Shown one piece after another: positions 3,014-57,566 of a DNA stretch of 64,000 nt. The notes beneath the pieces are model-generated. The model made no database searches, was not told the DNA's origin, and saw only the letters and a list, made by a program, of their open reading frames with translations. A program made the position numbers and the translations under genes. Positions within the stretch are counted from its first letter, which is position 1; each line of letters begins with the position of its first letter. The DNA is from Escherichia phage teqskov, in sequence record NC_054934.1. One strand, 5' to 3'.

Positions 3014-4786
3014 TTAATTAACTCCAGTCGCATCAAATACACCAGGAGCAGTCGTGCTCGTTACGGGTGTCATATTATGAACGACAGTATTTTTCTTAAT
3101 AACATTATTAGTATTATTGATCGAAGGAGATGCTTGTTGAACAGGAGCTTGCTGTGCTTTGTTCTTTTCTATTACCTGGACTTGTTTTGCTTCTGGCGAT
3201 TTAGCAGAAGTTTCAGGTTTGGCATTAGGCTGATTTTTCTTGAGCTCTTGATAAGTAGCATCAATTTTAGAAAATCTAGCAGCAAGTTCTTTTTTAACTG
3301 CCGGTGAATTATTTAAATCCGGGTCATCCATCCGTTTTTTAAGGTCTTCATAGGCAGCTTCAACTGATTTAACCGTTGAGTCTTTACTCATATCAGCTGA
3401 ATCAGCATATTTTTCAAAACGAATCATCGCGGCACGGGCTTCATTAGCCTTCATTAAAGCATTTTTTCTTTCTTCAGGTGAAAGTTGCTTTAATTTTTCT
3501 TCTTCTGCTGCGCGTTCTTCATCGGTTGTCAATGCTTCTTTATTATCAACGCCACGAATCCAGTTAGATGCACGAGTTTTCCAATTAGCAATTTTATCTA
3601 ATCCTTTTGCTATCGGACCAAGGTCTCCGTTCATTCGTTTATCTTGATAATTTGCAACTTTTTCCTGGTCTTCTTTATTGAGAGATGCTCCAGTAGAATT
3701 TTGGAAATTTTCTAGTGCTCTTCCTTCTACTTCATCAGCGGTATCCTTCATGCCAGGAATGACTCGAAGAATTGCAGCAGATAATTTAGCCATTCCAAGC
3801 TGAATAAGTTCTCCTAAATTATAAAGAACCTTTCCAAGCCCTTCTACAATAGCTACCGTCAAACCGCCCCAATCTCCCTCTTCCCAGAATTTTTTAATTT
3901 CATCAATAGAACTAAAGATGCTCTGTAATAAAGGACCCCATGTTCCGGTTTCGCTAGAGAATTTAGTAAAGTCTGTACTAAACAAATCCCAAGCCTGCGA
4001 AAATTTATCTGACCAATATTTGAAATGAACCATCAGCAGATCTATTCCAACAACAACAGCCAATATCATTGCAGTCATTTTAGCAGCTTCAATAGCAGCA
4101 CTAACGGTATACTTAAATAGCATGCTTGATATTTTATCAGTAATTGAAATGGATTTCTTAAATCCAAAATCAACAGTCTTTGTTAATTTATCTAAAGCTT
4201 GAGATAATTTTAAGTTAAATGCGTCTTTTTTCTGTTTTTCTTCTGGCGATTCTTGTTTAGGTTCAACTGGCTGAGGGGTAGGGAAAAAATCAGCATCAGG
4301 ATCATTATTAACTGCTTCAGGAGCCGGTAATAAAGGACCCACAGATTCAGCTGTATCGTCCTCAACAACTTTAACAGGAATAGCGCTTTCAACCGTAGCT
4401 AAACTAGTTCCTGTTTGTTGAATTCCAGCTGTCTGAATTTTTTGTTCTAATAAACTCGTTAATTTATCTAATTTGCTTCCGAGTGATTCGCCTATTTCTT
4501 TATTGATATTATTGCCAATTTCAACAGTCTCGGCAATTAACTCAGAACCAGCAGTAGTATCACTCACTGCGCTTTCTACATTGTCAATTGCTCCAATTAT
4601 TTCATTCGATTTTTCTTCGACAGTTTGAGCAATTAATTCAGAAGCAGCTTGAGCATCATCCAATTTCGTAGATATATCGTTAAGTCCAGATAAAGTGTTA
4701 GAAGCGGATTTAGCCGCTTCCTGTGTTGGTTTATTATCTGAAATAACTTTTCTACGCATCGTTTGCATTTCTTGTGGCTTTTTCAT
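3014..4786 (-). CDS. 29: tail tape-measure / baseplate hub protein gp29
   Basis: 590 aa as in T4 gp29; extended low-complexity/coiled regions; synteny. Confidence 0.8.
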   Translation of the reverse strand: MKKPQEMQTMRRKVISDNKPTQEAAKSASNTLSGLNDISTKLDDAQAASELIAQTVEEKSNEIIGAIDNVESAVSDTTAGSELIAETVEIGNNINKEIGESLGSKLDKLTSLLEQKIQTAGIQQTGTSLATVESAIPVKVVEDDTAESVGPLLPAPEAVNNDPDADFFPTPQPVEPKQESPEEKQKKDAFNLKLSQALDKLTKTVDFGFKKSISITDKISSMLFKYTVSAAIEAAKMTAMILAVVVGIDLLMVHFKYWSDKFSQAWDLFSTDFTKFSSETGTWGPLLQSIFSSIDEIKKFWEEGDWGGLTVAIVEGLGKVLYNLGELIQLGMAKLSAAILRVIPGMKDTADEVEGRALENFQNSTGASLNKEDQEKVANYQDKRMNGDLGPIAKGLDKIANWKTRASNWIRGVDNKEALTTDEERAAEEEKLKQLSPEERKNALMKANEARAAMIRFEKYADSADMSKDSTVKSVEAAYEDLKKRMDDPDLNNSPAVKKELAARFSKIDATYQELKKNQPNAKPETSAKSPEAKQVQVIEKNKAQQAPVQQASPSINNTNNVIKKNTVVHNMTPVTSTTAPGVFDATGVN

Positions 4787-46681: not shown

Positions 46682-47406
46682 ATGAAACTAATCTTTTTAA
46701 GTGGTGTAAAGCGTAGTGGAAAAGATACTACTGCAGATTTTATTATGAATAATTATTCTGCAGTTAAATATCAACTTGCTGGTCCTATTAAGGATGCATT
46801 GGCTTATGCATGGGGTGTATTTGCAGCAAACACTGACTATCCTTGTTTAACTCGTAAAGAGTTTGAAGGAATTGACTATGATCGTGAAACTAATTTAAAT
46901 CTGACTAAATTAGAAGTAATTACGATTATGGAACAAGCATTTTGCTATCTTAATAGTAAAAGCCCAATTAAAGGTGTGTTTGTTTTTGATGACGAAGGAA
47001 AAGAATCAGTTACTTTCGTAGCATTTAATAAGATTGCTGACGTTATAAATAATATTGAAGATCAATGGTCAGTCCGTCGTCTGATGCAAGCCCTAGGTAC
47101 GGATTTGATTGTTAATAACTTCGACCGCATGTATTGGGTAAAATTATTTGCTTTAGATTATCTTGATAAATTTAACTCAGGTTATGATTATTATATCGTT
47201 CCTGATACTCGTCAAGATCATGAAATGGATGCGGCTAGGGCGATGGGTGCTACAGTAATTCATGTAGTTCGTCCTGGTCAAAAATCCAATGATACACATA
47301 TTACAGAAGCTGGATTGCCAATTCGTGATGGCGATTTAGTAATTACAAACGATGGTTCTCTTGAAGAACTTTTTTCTAAAATTAAAAATACACTAAAGGT
47401 ACTATA

Positions 47407-47407: not shown

Positions 47408-48104
<697 letters not shown>

Positions 48105-48116
48105 CTTCATAAAGTT

Positions 48117-48146
48117 GTTTACACGCTGATGAGGTAGTGATACTAT
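48117..48146 (+). promoter_or_regulatory. T4-type early promoter (GTTTAC-N18-TACTAT), ip cassette 1
   Basis: -35 at 48117, extended -10 TG-a-TACTAT at 48141; ATG at 48177. Confidence 0.65.
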
Positions 48147-48176
48147 TACCTCATCAAAATTAATTAGGAAAATAAA

Positions 48177-48434
48177 ATGAAAACTTATAAAGAGTTTGCT
48201 ACAGAAACTATTATCACTGAATCTTCTCATGGTATGGAAGTAAAGCTTGGAATGGCTTTAGCTGAAGCTGAGCGTCTTTTTTCTCGTATTAAAGAACTTG
48301 CTGCTGCAGTCGATCCTTCATCTTTTAAAGGAGACCAAACTAAAGTTAAAGCACTTTTAGCATTATGCTCTGATGCAGGAGAAATCGCTAAGAACGGTTC
48401 TAAGATGAAGAAACGATTAGAAGATTTAAAATAA
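48177..48434 (+). CDS. internal-protein-like small protein with capsid targeting signal (CTS)
   Basis: N-terminus MKTYKEFATE matches the CTS consensus of T4 internal proteins; own early promoter. Confidence 0.6.
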   Translation: MKTYKEFATETIITESSHGMEVKLGMALAEAERLFSRIKELAAAVDPSSFKGDQTKVKALLALCSDAGEIAKNGSKMKKRLEDLK

Positions 48435-48446
48435 TTTCACAAAGTT

Positions 48447-48476
48447 GTTTACACGGGGTTTTAGTAGTGATACTAT
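48447..48476 (+). promoter_or_regulatory. T4-type early promoter (GTTTAC-N18-TACTAT), ip cassette 2
   Basis: -35 at 48447, -10 at 48471; ATG at 48513. Confidence 0.65.
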
Positions 48477-48512
48477 TACCCTATCAAAACAAATGTGAAA
48501 TTGGAGAATAAA

Positions 48513-48746
48513 ATGAAAACGTATCAAGAATTTATTGCTGAAGCTGCTGATGTAAAAGTTGAGTTTATTTACATTGGCAAGAAAGATAAAATGGGCGAAA
48601 TGCCTCATGGAGTTCTTCGTGATGCATTAGATAATTTCGGTCAACTCGGTGGTGAAGAGTTTGGTGATTATTTTGTTATCTATGGACCAGAAAAAGTCAT
48701 CGAGAAATGGGCTGATAAATATAAATCAATTTTTCGTAAAAAATAA
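48513..48746 (+). CDS. internal-protein-like small protein with CTS (IPI-family candidate)
   Basis: ORF-track start 48495 is GTG; ATG at 48513 with GGAGAA upstream gives MKTYQEFIAEA... (77 aa); own early promoter. Confidence 0.6.
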   Translation: MKTYQEFIAEAADVKVEFIYIGKKDKMGEMPHGVLRDALDNFGQLGGEEFGDYFVIYGPEKVIEKWADKYKSIFRKK

Positions 48747-48776
48747 GTTTACTTTTAGATAGGGTAGTGATACTAT
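48747..48776 (+). promoter_or_regulatory. T4-type early promoter (GTTTAC-N18-TACTAT), cassette 3
   Basis: -35 at 48747, -10 at 48771; ATG at 48805. Confidence 0.65.
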
Positions 48777-48804
48777 TACCCTATCTACTACTGAGGAGAA
48801 TAAA

Positions 48805-48990
48805 ATGAAACGTTGTGAATTAATTCGAAATGTTGCTATTGCAATTTCTGCTTCCGCTTTTAGTTTTTCAATGTTTGTTGGATTTATATGCGGATTATTA
48901 ACTACAGCAGAAAATGTGTTTTCACTTGTAGTAGCATTTTTAATTGGTTTAATCGCTATCGTTATGGATAAAATTTCTAAAGGTGAATAG
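48805..48990 (+). CDS. small hydrophobic membrane protein (61 aa, two predicted TM helices)
   Basis: own early promoter; GAGGAG upstream of ATG; hydrophobic composition. Confidence 0.5.
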   Translation: MKRCELIRNVAIAISASAFSFSMFVGFICGLLTTAENVFSLVVAFLIGLIAIVMDKISKGE

Positions 48991-49403: not shown

Positions 49404-49697
49404 ATGATTCTTTATGCTAAAGTATCATCCATTGAAAATGGATATAAATATGATCAAGAAGCAGCTAAAGCCTTGATTGATGATTATGGCATTTTAACAT
49501 GTTTTGAAGTTGAAAAGGTTTACATTGACCGTTCATCTTCTCAGGTTAAATTAGTGAAGGAAGACCGTAAATTTAATACAGTAAATTTTGATTTCTTTAT
49601 TGAAACGGAAAAAGGTCCTCTTGAATATGATATTTTCAAGAATCCTTTGGGTCTTGAATGTATTGAATATACTTACATTAATATGGTGAGCAAATGA
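49404..49697 (+). CDS. hypothetical protein (97 aa)
   Basis: ORF 2 nt after previous stop. Confidence 0.5.
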   Translation: MILYAKVSSIENGYKYDQEAAKALIDDYGILTCFEVEKVYIDRSSSQVKLVKEDRKFNTVNFDFFIETEKGPLEYDIFKNPLGLECIEYTYINMVSK

Positions 49698-50209
49698 ATA
49701 TTTGTTTAGGTACTACAATTCCACAGGGTTACGTAATTGATGTCACTACCTGGGAAAATGATGGTGACAACTATAAAACTAAAACACTGTTTGGCGTAGA
49801 AGAGCATGAAATCTTACAATTCCAATATCTTTTAAAGAAGTTTAAAAGCAGACATTCTAGTACTAAAGCTGAACGTTATTGTGGTAATGGCTTGTTCAGC
49901 GAGCAATCGCTTTTTATTTATGAATACTTGGTTGAAGGACTGTTCTCAGAACAACTTTATCCAGAATTCATTAAAAAGGTCTTTGATATAGAAGTTGACC
50001 TTGGTAATAAATCCGAAGAAGACGAAGAACGCATATTTGACTTATTCTTTGTGAATGGTAATAAAGTGCTTGAAGGACTTATTAATATTTTAGGTAATGC
50101 TTCTGAGTATTATGATTATGATTTTTTGCGTGTAGTTGAGAGTGTTAAATACTCTTATATAGAAGAAGAAATTGTTTTGCCGACCGTTAAAATGTTTAAT
50201 TTGCTTTAA
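49694..50209 (+). CDS. hypothetical protein (171 aa)
   Basis: ATGA overlap with previous ORF. Confidence 0.5.
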   Translation: MNICLGTTIPQGYVIDVTTWENDGDNYKTKTLFGVEEHEILQFQYLLKKFKSRHSSTKAERYCGNGLFSEQSLFIYEYLVEGLFSEQLYPEFIKKVFDIEVDLGNKSEEDEERIFDLFFVNGNKVLEGLINILGNASEYYDYDFLRVVESVKYSYIEEEIVLPTVKMFNLL

Positions 50210-50295: not shown

Positions 50296-50368
50296 TGGGA
50301 ATTAGCCAAGTTGGTAAGGCATAGCACTTTGACTGCTAGATGCAAAGGTTCGAGTCCTTTATTCCCAG
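50296..50368 (+). tRNA. tRNA-Gln (anticodon TTG)
   Basis: cloverleaf folded by hand: acceptor TGGGAAT/ATTCCCA, anticodon stem TAGCA/TGCTA, loop CTTTGAC, T-loop TTCGAGT. Confidence 0.85.
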
Positions 50369-50369
50369 C

Positions 50370-50456
50370 GCGAGAATGGTCAAATTGGTAAAGGCACAGC
50401 ACTTAAAATGCTGCGGAATGATTTCCTTGTGGGTTCGAGTCCCACTTCTCGCACCA
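50370..50456 (+). tRNA. tRNA-Leu (anticodon TAA), long variable arm, encoded CCA
   Basis: acceptor GCGAGAA/TTCTCGC; anticodon stem CAGCA/TGCTG, loop CTTAAAA. Confidence 0.85.
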
Positions 50457-50461
50457 AATTT

Positions 50462-50536
<75 letters not shown>

Positions 50537-50545
50537 TTTAATTTA

Positions 50546-50619
50546 CTCCGTGTAGCTCAGTTTGGTAGAGCGTCTGCTTTGGGAGCAGAATGTCGTAGGT
50601 TCAAATCCTGCCGCGGAGA
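50546..50619 (+). tRNA. tRNA-Pro (anticodon TGG)
   Basis: acceptor CTCCGTG/CGCGGAG (one G-T pair); anticodon stem TCTGC/GCAGA, loop TTTGGGA; T-loop TTCAAAT. Confidence 0.85.
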
Positions 50620-50621
50620 CT

Positions 50622-50711
50622 GGAGGCGTGGCAGAGTGGTTTAATGCACCGGTCTTGAAAACCGGCAGTCGCTCCGGCGACTCATAGGTTCAAATCCTAT
50701 CGCCTCCGCCA
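50622..50711 (+). tRNA. tRNA-Ser (anticodon TGA), long variable arm, encoded CCA
   Basis: acceptor GGAGGCG/CGCCTCC; anticodon stem CCGGT/ACCGG, loop CTTGAAA. Confidence 0.85.
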
Positions 50712-50716
50712 GTTTT

Positions 50717-50792
50717 GCTGATTTAGCTCAGTAGGTAGAGCAGTTGACTGTTAATCAATTGGTCCATGGTTCGAATCCATGCATGTCCGCCA
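50717..50792 (+). tRNA. aberrant tRNA-like gene (Asn-type anticodon GTT) with non-pairing acceptor stem; probable chimeric or pseudo-tRNA
   Basis: D-arm, anticodon arm (GTTGA-CTGTTAA-TCAAT) and T-arm (CATGG-TTCGAAT-CCATG) fold, but 5' acceptor GCTGATT cannot pair with 3' CATGTCC (3 of 7 pairs); ends in GCCA. Confidence 0.5.
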
Positions 50793-50918
50793 AACTTGTG
50801 ACAGTTGTCACATTAATATCTACTTGACGCGATTATAGGGGTTGAACTGATCACACTTCTCTTAATTTCGTGTGAAGACATCTTGATTGTTGGAGTAGGT
50901 ATTGCTGTGAACTAATTA

Positions 50919-50995
50919 CGGGGTGTAACTCAATTGTATAGAGTAGCGGTCCTCTAAACCGCAGGTTAAAGGTTAGAATCCTTTCACCCTGACCA
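50919..50995 (+). tRNA. tRNA-Arg (anticodon TCT), encoded CCA
   Basis: acceptor CGGGGTG/CACCCTG (one G-T pair); anticodon stem GCGGT/ACCGC, loop CCTCTAA; T-loop TTAGAAT. Confidence 0.85.
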
Positions 50996-51016: not shown

Positions 51017-51571
51017 ATGAGAAGTGATGTAGACTGGGACCAAATTAATTTGGCTATAAAAGCTGGATTAATATACCATGGTAATTTTGAAATAACACAA
51101 GAACTAATTGAAAATGTTGCTTTTCTTAAAATAACAGATAAGAAAAAATTCTTTTCTATGACTGAAGCCAAACGCTTGTCAAAATGGAAAGTATTTTGTA
51201 GGACTGCCGCCCTAAATCTTTTGAAATTTAAAGATGAATTTGATATAGAAAAAAGCTATCGACAGGCTTTCGTATACATAATGGTAGATACTACAAATCC
51301 TAATTATTATAAAATAGGAAGAAGTATAGAACCTGATGTTAGAGTTATAACAGCAAATACATTTTCACCGTTTAAAAGTTTTAAAATAGTATCATTTAGA
51401 TATTCCCAGGATGCAGTAGAACTTGAAAAATATATGCACAGCATTTATAATCAGGACCATATAAATGGTGAATGGTTTTTCTTTCATGACATAAGTTCCA
51501 TAGTTAAAAAATTAGATACTAAATCTACACAATTTGAAATACCAAATGAGAAACCGGGTCGCTACCGGTAA
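51017..51571 (+). CDS. T5orf172 / GIY-YIG-like domain protein (184 aa)
   Basis: C-terminal half has VYIMVD...YYKIGRS...R......ELEKYMHSIY...GEWF, matching the T5orf172 (GIY-YIG superfamily) pattern; lies directly after tRNA-Arg. Confidence 0.55.
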   Translation: MRSDVDWDQINLAIKAGLIYHGNFEITQELIENVAFLKITDKKKFFSMTEAKRLSKWKVFCRTAALNLLKFKDEFDIEKSYRQAFVYIMVDTTNPNYYKIGRSIEPDVRVITANTFSPFKSFKIVSFRYSQDAVELEKYMHSIYNQDHINGEWFFFHDISSIVKKLDTKSTQFEIPNEKPGRYR

Positions 51572-51859: not shown

Positions 51860-51886
51860 GCCCCGACCGAAAGGTTGGGGCTTTTT
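51860..51886 (+). terminator. rho-independent terminator (CCCCGACC-GAAA-GGTTGGGG then CTTTTT)
   Basis: 8-bp GC-rich stem, GAAA loop, T-run. Confidence 0.7.
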
Positions 51887-51932
51887 AGTATAAATAAGTA
51901 TATTAAAACCACGAATTAAAACAGGAAATAAG

Positions 51933-52406
51933 ATGAAATCATATGCTCAATTTTTAAATGAAGCGGTGTTAAATGAAGCATCTAGCACTGAAATTCAAGC
52001 TGTTGCAAAAGCTGCCATTGCCGCGGGTAAATATTCCTATAAAGATGCTTCCGATGAATCACGATTCCAATTTGCTCGTGATATGAAAGCCGAAGGATTT
52101 ACAGGGAATGCAGTTAGTATGGCTTGGAAAAGTTTAGTTGCTACTGGAGCTGCTTTTGCAAAGGCTTCAGGTAAACCTGCTCCTAAGGCTGATCCTAAAG
52201 CAGCACAAGAAAAAAATATTGCTAAAGGAATTATCTCTAGGTATGAAGCAATTCTTAAAGAACTTTTGATAATCAAAACTGAAGGCCAAAAGCTAGCTCG
52301 TGCTTATAGTTTCAAAGATAACCCACATGTTCACTCTCTTGAATATGTTGAAGACATCCAAAAAATTATTAAAGACCGCATTTGGTCTGCTAAACAAATC
52401 AAATAA
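51933..52406 (+). CDS. CTS-bearing putative internal (head-packaged) protein, 157 aa, Lys/Ala-rich
   Basis: N-terminus MKSYAQFLNEAVLNEA resembles the CTS with L-x-E cleavage motifs; followed by a terminator. Confidence 0.5.
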   Translation: MKSYAQFLNEAVLNEASSTEIQAVAKAAIAAGKYSYKDASDESRFQFARDMKAEGFTGNAVSMAWKSLVATGAAFAKASGKPAPKADPKAAQEKNIAKGIISRYEAILKELLIIKTEGQKLARAYSFKDNPHVHSLEYVEDIQKIIKDRIWSAKQIK

Positions 52407-56076: not shown

Positions 56077-56607
<531 letters not shown>

Positions 56608-56666
56608 AGTTGTTTACTTTCTCCTAGAATTGTGATAGTATATTCACAGTTACTTGGAGGGATAAA

Positions 56667-57083
56667 ATGACTCGTATTAATTTGACTTTAGTATCTGAAC
56701 TTGCTGATCAACATTTAATCGCAGAATACCGTGAATTGCCACGTGTTTTTGGTATAGTTCGTAAGCATGTGGCAAACGGTAAGCGCGTTAAAGATTTTAA
56801 AATATCTTCCGAGTTTATTTTAGGTTCTGGTCATGTTACGTTCTTTTACGATAAGTTAGAATTTTTGCGAAAGCGTCAATTAGACATTATAACGGAATGC
56901 TTAAAACGAGGGTTCAGTATAAAAGATACTGAAGTTCCTGACATCAGCGATATTCCAGTAGAATGGAAAAATGATTATAATCCATGCAAATCAGCTATTA
57001 AATTGAGTCAACAACGACTTGATGAAAAAATTTTAATGAAACCACATTGGTATAAGTATTACGGTAAAAATATTTACATTTAA
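56667..57083 (+). CDS. denV: endonuclease V (pyrimidine-dimer DNA glycosylase) DenV
   Basis: 138 aa; [17 protein letters not shown]... recognised. Confidence 0.9.
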
Positions 57084-57092
57084 AGGAAACAT

Positions 57093-57566
57093 ATGAAAAC
57101 ATATCAAGAATTTATCACTGAAGCAGCTATTAATTCTCAAATTATTGCTGAATCTTTTACCGATCTTTTGAAATTTAAAAAAGGTCAAAAAATCACTGCT
57201 GTATTGGATGATGGTACAGAAGTTGAGATGGATGTACAGGGATATAATTATGCAGTAGATGGAAAACTGTATAATAAATCTCATGCTAAATTTGATTCAT
57301 TTGACGACTTTGTTAATACAGTTGAAGATGAAAAAACTCGTAGATCCATTGCAACTGGTGATGCTAAGGTTCTTATGGCACATGGTCATGAACGCATTCG
57401 CGCTAAACAGAATAAAATGGGTGAAGATAATTTTGCATTAGTTGGTTATCAATCTGGTAAACAAACTTATGGCTATCAACGTACTGCTACCATGTATAAT
57501 AAAAATGGTAAAATCGCTTTCGTGAATAGTAAAGGTTCTATTCAGTACGTTAAATCGTTCAAATAA
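57093..57566 (+). CDS. CTS-bearing internal protein (ipII/ipIII locus), 157 aa
   Basis: N-terminus MKTYQEFITEAAINSQIIAE; position after denV corresponds to T4 ipII/ipIII. Confidence 0.6.
   Translation: MKTYQEFITEAAINSQIIAESFTDLLKFKKGQKITAVLDDGTEVEMDVQGYNYAVDGKLYNKSHAKFDSFDDFVNTVEDEKTRRSIATGDAKVLMAHGHERIRAKQNKMGEDNFALVGYQSGKQTYGYQRTATMYNKNGKIAFVNSKGSIQYVKSFK

Follow-up and report, generated by a model that had tools for sequence, protein, structure and literature searches.

The stretch of DNA analysed here, 64,000 nucleotides of Escherichia phage teqskov (NC_054934.1; hereafter the window), is by its sequence that of a T6-like Tequatrovirus. Genes 1, 57A and 57B are followed in it by two small genes, ip5 and ip6, and then by trna.4, trna.3, trna.2 and the tRNA cluster; all features described below lie on the + strand. 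On its left the locus is anchored by the conserved gene 57B (47646–48104), which encodes Acb1, the anti-CBASS phosphodiesterase (Pfam PF23474, E 2.7e-60), and on its right by a conserved homologue of trna.4 (48805–48990; phrog_1692), both being found at the same positions in T4, T6 and PST. The trna.4 homologue is a hydrophobic, predicted membrane protein of 61 aa without a capsid targeting signal (CTS), known in the databases as 'Uncharacterized 6.6 kDa protein in segB-ipI intergenic region'. Between the anchors, ip5 (48177–48434; phrog_3499, E 3.7e-50) encodes an 85-aa precursor starting with MKTYKEF and ip6 (48513–48746; phrog_8111, E 1.8e-50) a 77-aa precursor starting with MKTYQEFIAEA. 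The ORF list extends ip6 to a GTG at 48495, and the ATG at 48513 is preceded by GGAGAATAAA. Both proteins fall, with E values of about 1e-50, into PHROGs families named 'internal head protein' and 'internal virion protein'. An earlier annotation of this DNA (the first-pass annotation) had placed two ORFs of these lengths and N-termini between 57B and the tRNA cluster, after the first two of three early promoters, and its description of their location and order stands.

In a DNA search 194 phage records covered at least 80% of the 2-kb region, the top matches being Tequatrovirus genomes of 95–99% identity with an unchanged gene order; the region is 98.8% identical to that of vB_Eco_Some and 95.8% identical to that of T6. 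The locus is syntenic in T4, T6, PST and Bas37, the interval from 57B to trna.4 being one of the two ip loci. The two genes are annotated as ipV and ipVI in Yersinia phage PST, while the record of phage JB75 holds Ip5 and Ip6 with one promoter before each. The ip5/ip6 locus is real but already known, since the gene names and promoters are present in GenBank records.

The teqskov Ip5 protein is identical to the 'internal head protein' of RB68, is 95–96% identical over the full length to the proteins of T6 (96%), T2 and Bas37, and matches an 82-aa RB70 entry at all aligned positions; its protein cluster carries the UniProt name Ip5 (Q38630_BPT6, Q38378_BPR70). It shares with Ip5 of T6, T2 and RB70 the length of 85 aa, the place as first gene after 57B, the CTS and the ITE site, and differs from them by three substitutions in the N-terminal propeptide (Y4, E10, I12). 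The Ip6 protein is 100% identical to proteins of vB_Eco_Some, teqhad and KAW1E185 and shows, over the full length, 79% identity to T6 Ip6, 84% to the 'Ip6' of VR20 and 81% to the bas37_0260 product; Ip6 is among the UniProt names in its cluster.

To put these genes into the context of the locus, 40 loci were compared, 36 of them related loci fetched via 57B, with those of T4, T6 and PST added. The interval from 57B to trna.4 contains from zero to four CTS-bearing ORFs per locus, and the 66 such ORFs of the 40 loci form 17 families of mature domains. Genes of the Ip6 type are present in 16 loci and genes of the Ip5 type in five, in varied combinations and positions.

The motif GTTTAC-N18-TACTAT is matched exactly at 48117–48146, 48447–48476 and 48747–48776, the three early promoters that the first-pass annotation had pointed out; the third lies directly after the ip6 stop codon. 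With one mismatch allowed, the window contains seven matches to this motif against 0.41 expected. In promoter 1 the GTTTAC hexamer is followed by 18 nt ending in GTGA (TGn) and then by TACTAT. The promoters of cassettes 1 and 2 read TTTACA-17-TACTAT with TG ahead of the −10 box, and the promoter of cassette 3 reads TTTACT. The tested features of the T4 early promoter class, namely the −35 box, the 17-nt spacer, TGn, the −10 box and an A/T-rich upstream tract, are present, which fits the description of T4 early promoters as a UP/−35/TGn/−10 class (PMC2988021), and the cassette promoters are predicted to be of this T4 type. Promoter 1 differs from the T4 element upstream of ipI at two of 30 positions only (ACG versus ATA after GTTTAC) and is, judged by this similarity, its orthologue, with a predicted transcription start near 48153. 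The late-promoter motif TATAAATA does not occur inside the cassettes, the nearest copy upstream on the same strand being at 47044, which counts against a supply of protein sufficient for prohead assembly. As the first-pass annotation had implied, the third cassette does not drive a CTS protein; it drives the trna.4 homologue.

The −10 hexamer of every one of the three promoters sits within a hairpin. Hairpin 1 (48127–48156) has a 13-bp stem and a 4-nt loop (MFE −17.4 kcal/mol, z −3.58), hairpin 2 (48455–48482) has an interrupted stem of 5+5 bp (MFE −22.9 kcal/mol for 48435–48512, z −4.20) and hairpin 3 (48756–48787) a 14-bp stem (MFE −19.5 kcal/mol, z −4.22), so that the RNA fold energies lie 3.6 to 4.2 standard deviations under those of shuffled sequence. 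There is no U-tract after hairpins 1–3, and a terminator scan calls no terminator there; the hairpins might act as attenuators, as RNA stabilisers or as sites of recombination. Hairpin 2 is of the same type as the T4 element preceding trna.4. We considered that cassette 2 might be a chimera of two hairpin types and rejected this, as the T4 element before trna.4 shows the same GGGTTTTAG...ACCC arrangement; the hairpin of cassette 2 is thus a standing element type. Altogether 48 distinct promoter–hairpin elements were found in the compared loci, and their arms vary widely while mostly remaining complementary. A count of pairing in a fixed register over 46 distinct elements (66% paired versus 29–56% in shifted registers) was dropped and is not relied on, because the stems vary in length and have bulges, and folds of the individual elements were used instead.

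The similarity between cassettes extends well beyond the promoters. A direct repeat of 76 nt, covering the gene end, the A/T-rich tract, the promoter and the hairpin, flanks ip5: its left copy (48089–48164) includes the last codons of 57B (..DDLK) and its right copy (48419–48494), 83% identical to the left one, the last codons of ip5 (..EDLK). The likeness of the ends of 57B and of the first cassette gene, given as about 35 nt in the first-pass annotation, is therefore real but longer than stated. Another family of repeats spans the ribosome-binding site together with the ATG and the initial codons, so that the 5' part of the CTS-coding sequence lies within the repeated unit. The Shine–Dalgarno (SD) sequences of cassettes 2 (48503–48513) and 3 (48795–48805), located by motif search, both read GGAGAATAAAA, which is an exact copy of the recognition consensus of the RegB nuclease with S1; no further exact copy occurs in the 64 kb. 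Cleavage by RegB/S1 follows the 11-nt consensus GGAGAAUAAAA (PMC1702504), and cassettes 2 and 3 are accordingly predicted to carry RegB cleavage sites in the translation initiation region. The SD region of cassette 1 (48167–48177) reads GGAAAATAAAA, a one-mismatch (GGAA) variant of this consensus; GGAA sites are very poorly cut by RegB (PMC1702504), and poor cutting is predicted for cassette 1.

When aligned to IPI, IPII and IPIII of T4, Ip5 and Ip6 match at the N-termini only and the rest of both proteins does not align. The CTS assigned to both proteins by the first-pass annotation is borne out by this comparison. The first ten residues of Ip6, MKTYQEFIAE, are those of the T4 IPII/IPIII CTS in all ten positions, while the Ip5 N-terminus, MKTYKEFATE, is a CTS of the IPI type that retains Y4 and F7. 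In the IPIII CTS, targeting requires the aromatic residue at position 4 (Y4) and F7, processing requires I8 and E10, and the gp21 protease cleaves after L/I-x-E (PMC9026906). This motif is present in Ip6 as I8-A9-E10. In Ip5 the motif I13-T14-E15 is invariant among the homologues, even in one with a shortened propeptide, and resembles the ..STITE site of T4 IPI, whereas A8-T9-E10 is not conserved among them. By analogy with T4, the CTS would bring both precursors into the scaffold core of the prohead, gp21 would cut Ip6 after I-A-E10 and Ip5 after I-T-E15, and the small mature proteins would then be injected together with the phage DNA; packaging, processing and injection of Ip5 and Ip6 are thus probable on the T4 precedent.

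The predicted mature Ip5 is a basic helical hairpin of 70 aa (pI 9.2), for which AlphaFold2 returned two long helices packed as a hairpin (pLDDT 74). The predicted mature Ip6 is a near-neutral domain of 67 aa (pI 6.8), modelled as a compact beta-alpha-beta-beta-alpha-beta fold (pLDDT 85.5), and its superposition with the BFVD model for VR7 Ip6 gives a TM score of 0.95. Neither Ip5 nor Ip6 had a match in Pfam, and the PDB sequence searches gave nothing significant. The fold and sequence searches together yielded no informative neighbour for either protein and no likeness to IPI*, which was not among the PDB search matches. An exhaustive HMMER search with the mature Ip6 returned two relatives and, at E 3.8e-4, a repeat protein of 428 aa that was rejected for its low-complexity YGPEIG repeats.

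The two halves of ip6 have different histories. Compared with T6, codons 1–44 show a dS of 0.13, while codons 45–77 show a dS of 0.94 and 17–18 non-synonymous differences. The first half is T6/Bas37-like, and the second agrees with the allele class of three of the compared loci (L019, L020 and L022). The contrast in dS between the halves indicates that two old allele classes have been joined within the gene, making ip6 a mosaic. Positive selection was not detected in ip6 by the crude Nei–Gojobori dN/dS, which stayed below 0.3 throughout and was 0.28 in the variable half. At the protein level teqskov Ip6 agrees with T6 Ip6 and bas37_0260 in having 77 aa, adjoining trna.4, carrying an identical CTS and being almost identical over residues 1–45, and differs from them in residues 46–70, which come from another allele class; of the 77 residues, 15 differ from bas37_0260, clustered at 46–70.

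The anti-defence role of the internal proteins (IPs) is the standard view (PMC3012670, PMC12373910), and they have been described by Rao and Black as diverse defence proteins with only the CTS in common (PMC3012670). One of them, T4 IPI (mature form IPI*), inhibits the GmrS/GmrD enzyme of E. coli CT596. It shares with the genes described here the locus and the upstream promoter–hairpin–SD cassette, and with Ip5 also a CTS of the type ending in ITE, the small size and the basic character, but the mature domains are unrelated, belonging to separate families that do not align past the CTS. Neither of the teqskov proteins is therefore T4 IPI, the identity against which the first-pass annotation had proposed to check them. 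Each of the T4 proteins Ip1, Ip2 and Ip3 inhibits one distinct GmrSD variant, while ip4–10, a set that by its numbering should include Ip5 and Ip6, did not reproducibly inhibit the 15 GmrSD groups tested (PMC12373910). Phage T6 carries both Ip5 and Ip6 yet remains subject to restriction by GmrSD-ECOR17 and GmrSD-ECOR21 (PMC12373910), which leaves Ip5 without a known target.

For Ip6 a target can be proposed. According to a 2025 preprint (10.1101/2025.11.20.689424), bas37_0260, one of two genes at the Bas37 ipI locus, carries a CTS and is needed specifically against McrBC of E. coli K-12, its knockout being specifically McrBC-sensitive. Bas37 is phage KarlGJung (MZ501089), in which bas37_0262 is 57B, bas37_0261 the 85-aa gene and bas37_0260 the 77-aa gene. 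The bas37_0260 product and T6 Ip6 share 99% identity, and the product of bas37_0261 is Ip5. On the strength of this identity the reported McrBC inhibitor is Ip6, a link that is drawn here, the preprint not naming the gene as Ip6. McrBC cuts DNA containing 5hmC; the DNA of T4 is fully glucosylated, while T2 and T6 keep some non-glucosylated 5hmC (PMC13160076). The latter is a substrate of McrBC, which fits the role of Ip6 as a McrBC inhibitor. Since its Bas37 orthologue, with 81% identity, is reportedly required against specifically the K-12 enzyme, the target of teqskov Ip6 is likely, by analogy, to be McrBC. We infer that both Ip5 and Ip6 are inhibitors of modification-dependent (type IV) restriction. 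The specificity of the two proteins, which the first-pass annotation had called unknown, has thus in part been reported already, as the preprint describes a block of McrBC by the Bas37 orthologue of Ip6; the phrase now applies only to Ip5 and to the mosaic Ip6 allele.

The mosaic structure of ip6 bears directly on this assignment, as the 15 differences from the Bas37 allele mean that the specificity of teqskov Ip6 may differ. It is possible, although we consider it somewhat unlikely, that its target is something other than K-12 McrBC and that the C-terminal half of the second class sets the enzyme or the McrBC variant that is bound. The strong divergence of codons 45–77, of the L019/L020/L022 class, next to a T6/Bas37-like first half speaks for it, the differences between the alleles map to strands 3–4 and helix 2 of the model, and strict specificity for a single enzyme is seen with each of Ip1, Ip2 and Ip3. 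Against this, the protein core and the fold of Ip6 are conserved, and the dN/dS of the variable half indicates that it evolves under constraint.

Less probable is a view of Ip5, and possibly of Ip6, as generic internal head proteins that serve DNA condensation or ejection and have no specific anti-defence target. The small size, the basic charge and the simple helical hairpin of mature Ip5 would suit such a function, as would the missing target and the lack of effect of ip4–10 on the 15 GmrSD groups; the accessible part of the Bas37 preprint, moreover, mentions no phenotype for Ip5 (bas37_0261) in the screen. A housekeeping role, however, fits ill with a gene that occurs in only five of the 40 loci and is freely replaced by genes for unrelated proteins. 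In addition, the mature Ip6 is near neutral, and all four IPs of known function (Ip1, Ip2, Ip3 and bas37_0260) are restriction inhibitors. Inhibition of type IV restriction by Ip5 and Ip6 is the reading that we retain.

Related phages differ at this locus by whole cassettes, with breakpoints in the promoter/hairpin element and in the CTS codons. Between teqskov and T4, a 556-nt block of 96.8% homology running from 57B stops at 48200, inside the CTS codons, and homology resumes at 48767, inside hairpin 3, at 98.7%. One of the compared loci, L037, has Ip6 as its only CTS protein, and what is missing from it is precisely the ip5 unit that lies between the two copies of the direct repeat. Some elements in other loci have mismatched arms (L030:805, L021:1177 and L021:846) and look like the products that crossovers within the common −10 core would yield. 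The mapping of the breakpoints, together with the shuffling of 17 families across the 40 loci, supports homologous recombination in the cassette flanks and bears out the suggestion of the first-pass annotation that the cassettes are exchangeable. Each gene has a self-contained cassette for expression and targeting, in which an A/T-rich tract is followed by what by its sequence is a strong sigma-70 early promoter with its −10 box in a hairpin, and then by an SD sequence, an ATG and a CTS of some 10–15 codons; cassettes would be gained, lost and swapped by ordinary homologous recombination between the conserved flanks of about 75–120 nt during mixed infection. That the repeats are alike only as strong early promoters must be, and have no part in gene exchange, is very improbable: promoters of the same GTTTAC-N18-TACTAT form do occur elsewhere in the window (52576 and 63896), but the repeats are also alike outside the promoter, namely in the final codons of the gene before it, in the arms of the hairpin, in the SD and in the CTS codons, the homology breakpoints between phages fall in the cassette elements, the difference in one locus amounts to precisely one repeat unit, and the elements with mismatched arms resemble crossover products.

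Exchange of small genes at elements of this general kind has been described before. The PeSL elements of RB49/phi1 and other T4-like phages (Arbiol 2010, Comeau 2014) likewise combine an early promoter with a stem-loop flanking small accessory genes, and both they and the T-even IP elements are sites of modular exchange. In PeSL the stem-loop works as a transcription terminator next to the promoter. The teqskov elements differ from PeSL in that their stem is wrapped around the −10 box instead of being placed next to it and is A/T-rich, without polyG/polyC and without a terminator U-tract. The T-even IP elements have been considered to be analogues and not homologues of PeSL (Arbiol 2010, PMC2839356). 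The known IP variants number more than 30, and the T-even elements have been characterized as T4 early promoters plus A/T-rich stem-loops (PMC2839356); the same account is given again by Comeau 2014 (PMC4122927), where the differences in IPs between PST and T4 were noted as well. The polymorphism of the ip locus and its promoter/stem-loop elements go back, as far as the citations in PMC2839356 and PMC4122927 convey, to Repoila 1994. The first-pass annotation was thus correct in its reading of the locus, which is a rediscovery of one described in 1994 with named genes.

The second ip locus of T-even phages, occupied in T4 by ipII/ipIII next to gene e, is also variable and also encodes injected proteins bearing a CTS. 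It differs in genome position and in neighbours and is separate from the ip5/ip6 finding. In teqskov there is one CTS gene at this second locus, at 57093–57566.

Taken as a whole, the region is very probably the hyperplastic ip1 locus with the known genes ip5 and ip6 in exchangeable cassettes, whose products we infer to be injected inhibitors of type IV restriction. As a tentative extension, which we would not put beyond a possibility worth stating, the C-terminal classes of Ip6 (AAEDYGDKIVVTGPAA..AAEN versus GGEEFGDYFVIYGPEK..ADKY) may be specificity variants that follow different enzymes of the McrBC family or other enzymes of type IV, and Ip5 may inhibit a defence other than GmrSD. If this is true, teqskov would carry a specificity pair, Ip5 and its Ip6 allele, built by intragenic and cassette recombination. 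The recognition of bas37_0260 as the long-named Ip6 ties a function to a family present in 16 of the 40 loci, and such a function agrees with glucosylation being incomplete in DNA of the T2/T6 type. With its swappable set of injected anti-restriction proteins, the locus is a textbook example for the T4-like phages.

The two halves of ip6, one of the two internal-protein genes in the repeated promoter–hairpin cassettes between 57B and trna.4, have diverged to very different extents, with a dS against T6 of 0.94 over codons 45–77 (48645–48743) and of 0.13 in the N-terminal half. Judged from these sequences, the C-terminal and N-terminal halves belong to different allele classes, which indicates recombination within the gene. 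Mixed-type arms were also found in four promoter–hairpin elements of two related loci, L030:4805, L021:5177, L021:4846 and L030:4472 (locus coordinates, with the 57B start at 4001). The stems of these elements are broken because their two arms belong to different element types, and the mismatched elements look like crossover products of an exchange within the shared -10 core.

Proteins with the capsid-targeting start (CTS), or with one resembling it, are also encoded elsewhere in the window. A second ip locus (56113–57566, + strand) consists of gene e (56113–56607, +), denV (56667–57083, +) and the gene of a 157 aa CTS protein beginning MKTYQEFITEAA (57093–57566, +; phrog_3155, internal virion protein), so that the order is e-denV-ip, in contrast to e-ipIII-ipII-denV in T4. 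Away from the two classical ip loci, a third ORF (51933–52406, +; phrog_2280, unknown function) encodes a protein of 157 aa that opens with the CTS-like MKSYAQFLNEA; upstream of this ORF come a G+C-rich hairpin carrying a T-run (about 51860–51888) and, at 51889, the late-promoter motif TATAAATA.

The tRNA region (50296–50995) contains six tRNAs by ARAGORN (Gln, Leu, Gly, Pro, Ser and Arg) compared with eight in T4 and PST, and is followed by a 184 aa ORF (51017–51571). Between trna.2 and tRNA-Gln there is a 171 aa ORF (49694–50209, +), absent at that place in T4, T6 and PST but present in vB_Eco_Some and several IMG/VR loci.

In phage Bas37 the Ip5 gene (L048 3364–3621; MZ501089 145863–146120) is labelled 'internal head protein ipI' in GenBank, while the Ip6 gene, bas37_0260, is only 'hypothetical' there; nor does the HIDEN-SEQ preprint (10.1101/2025.11.20.689424) link the name Ip6 to bas37_0260.

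The sole same-strand copy of TATAAATA upstream of the cassettes (47044–47051, +) lies within gene 1, and late read-through transcription of 57A, 57B, ip5 and ip6 could start from it. The RefSeq label of 57B (47646–48104, +) is still 'RNA ligase'; Pfam (E 2.7e-60) identifies its product as the anti-CBASS phosphodiesterase Acb1, and a known counter-defence gene is therefore situated directly 5' of the injected-protein cassettes.
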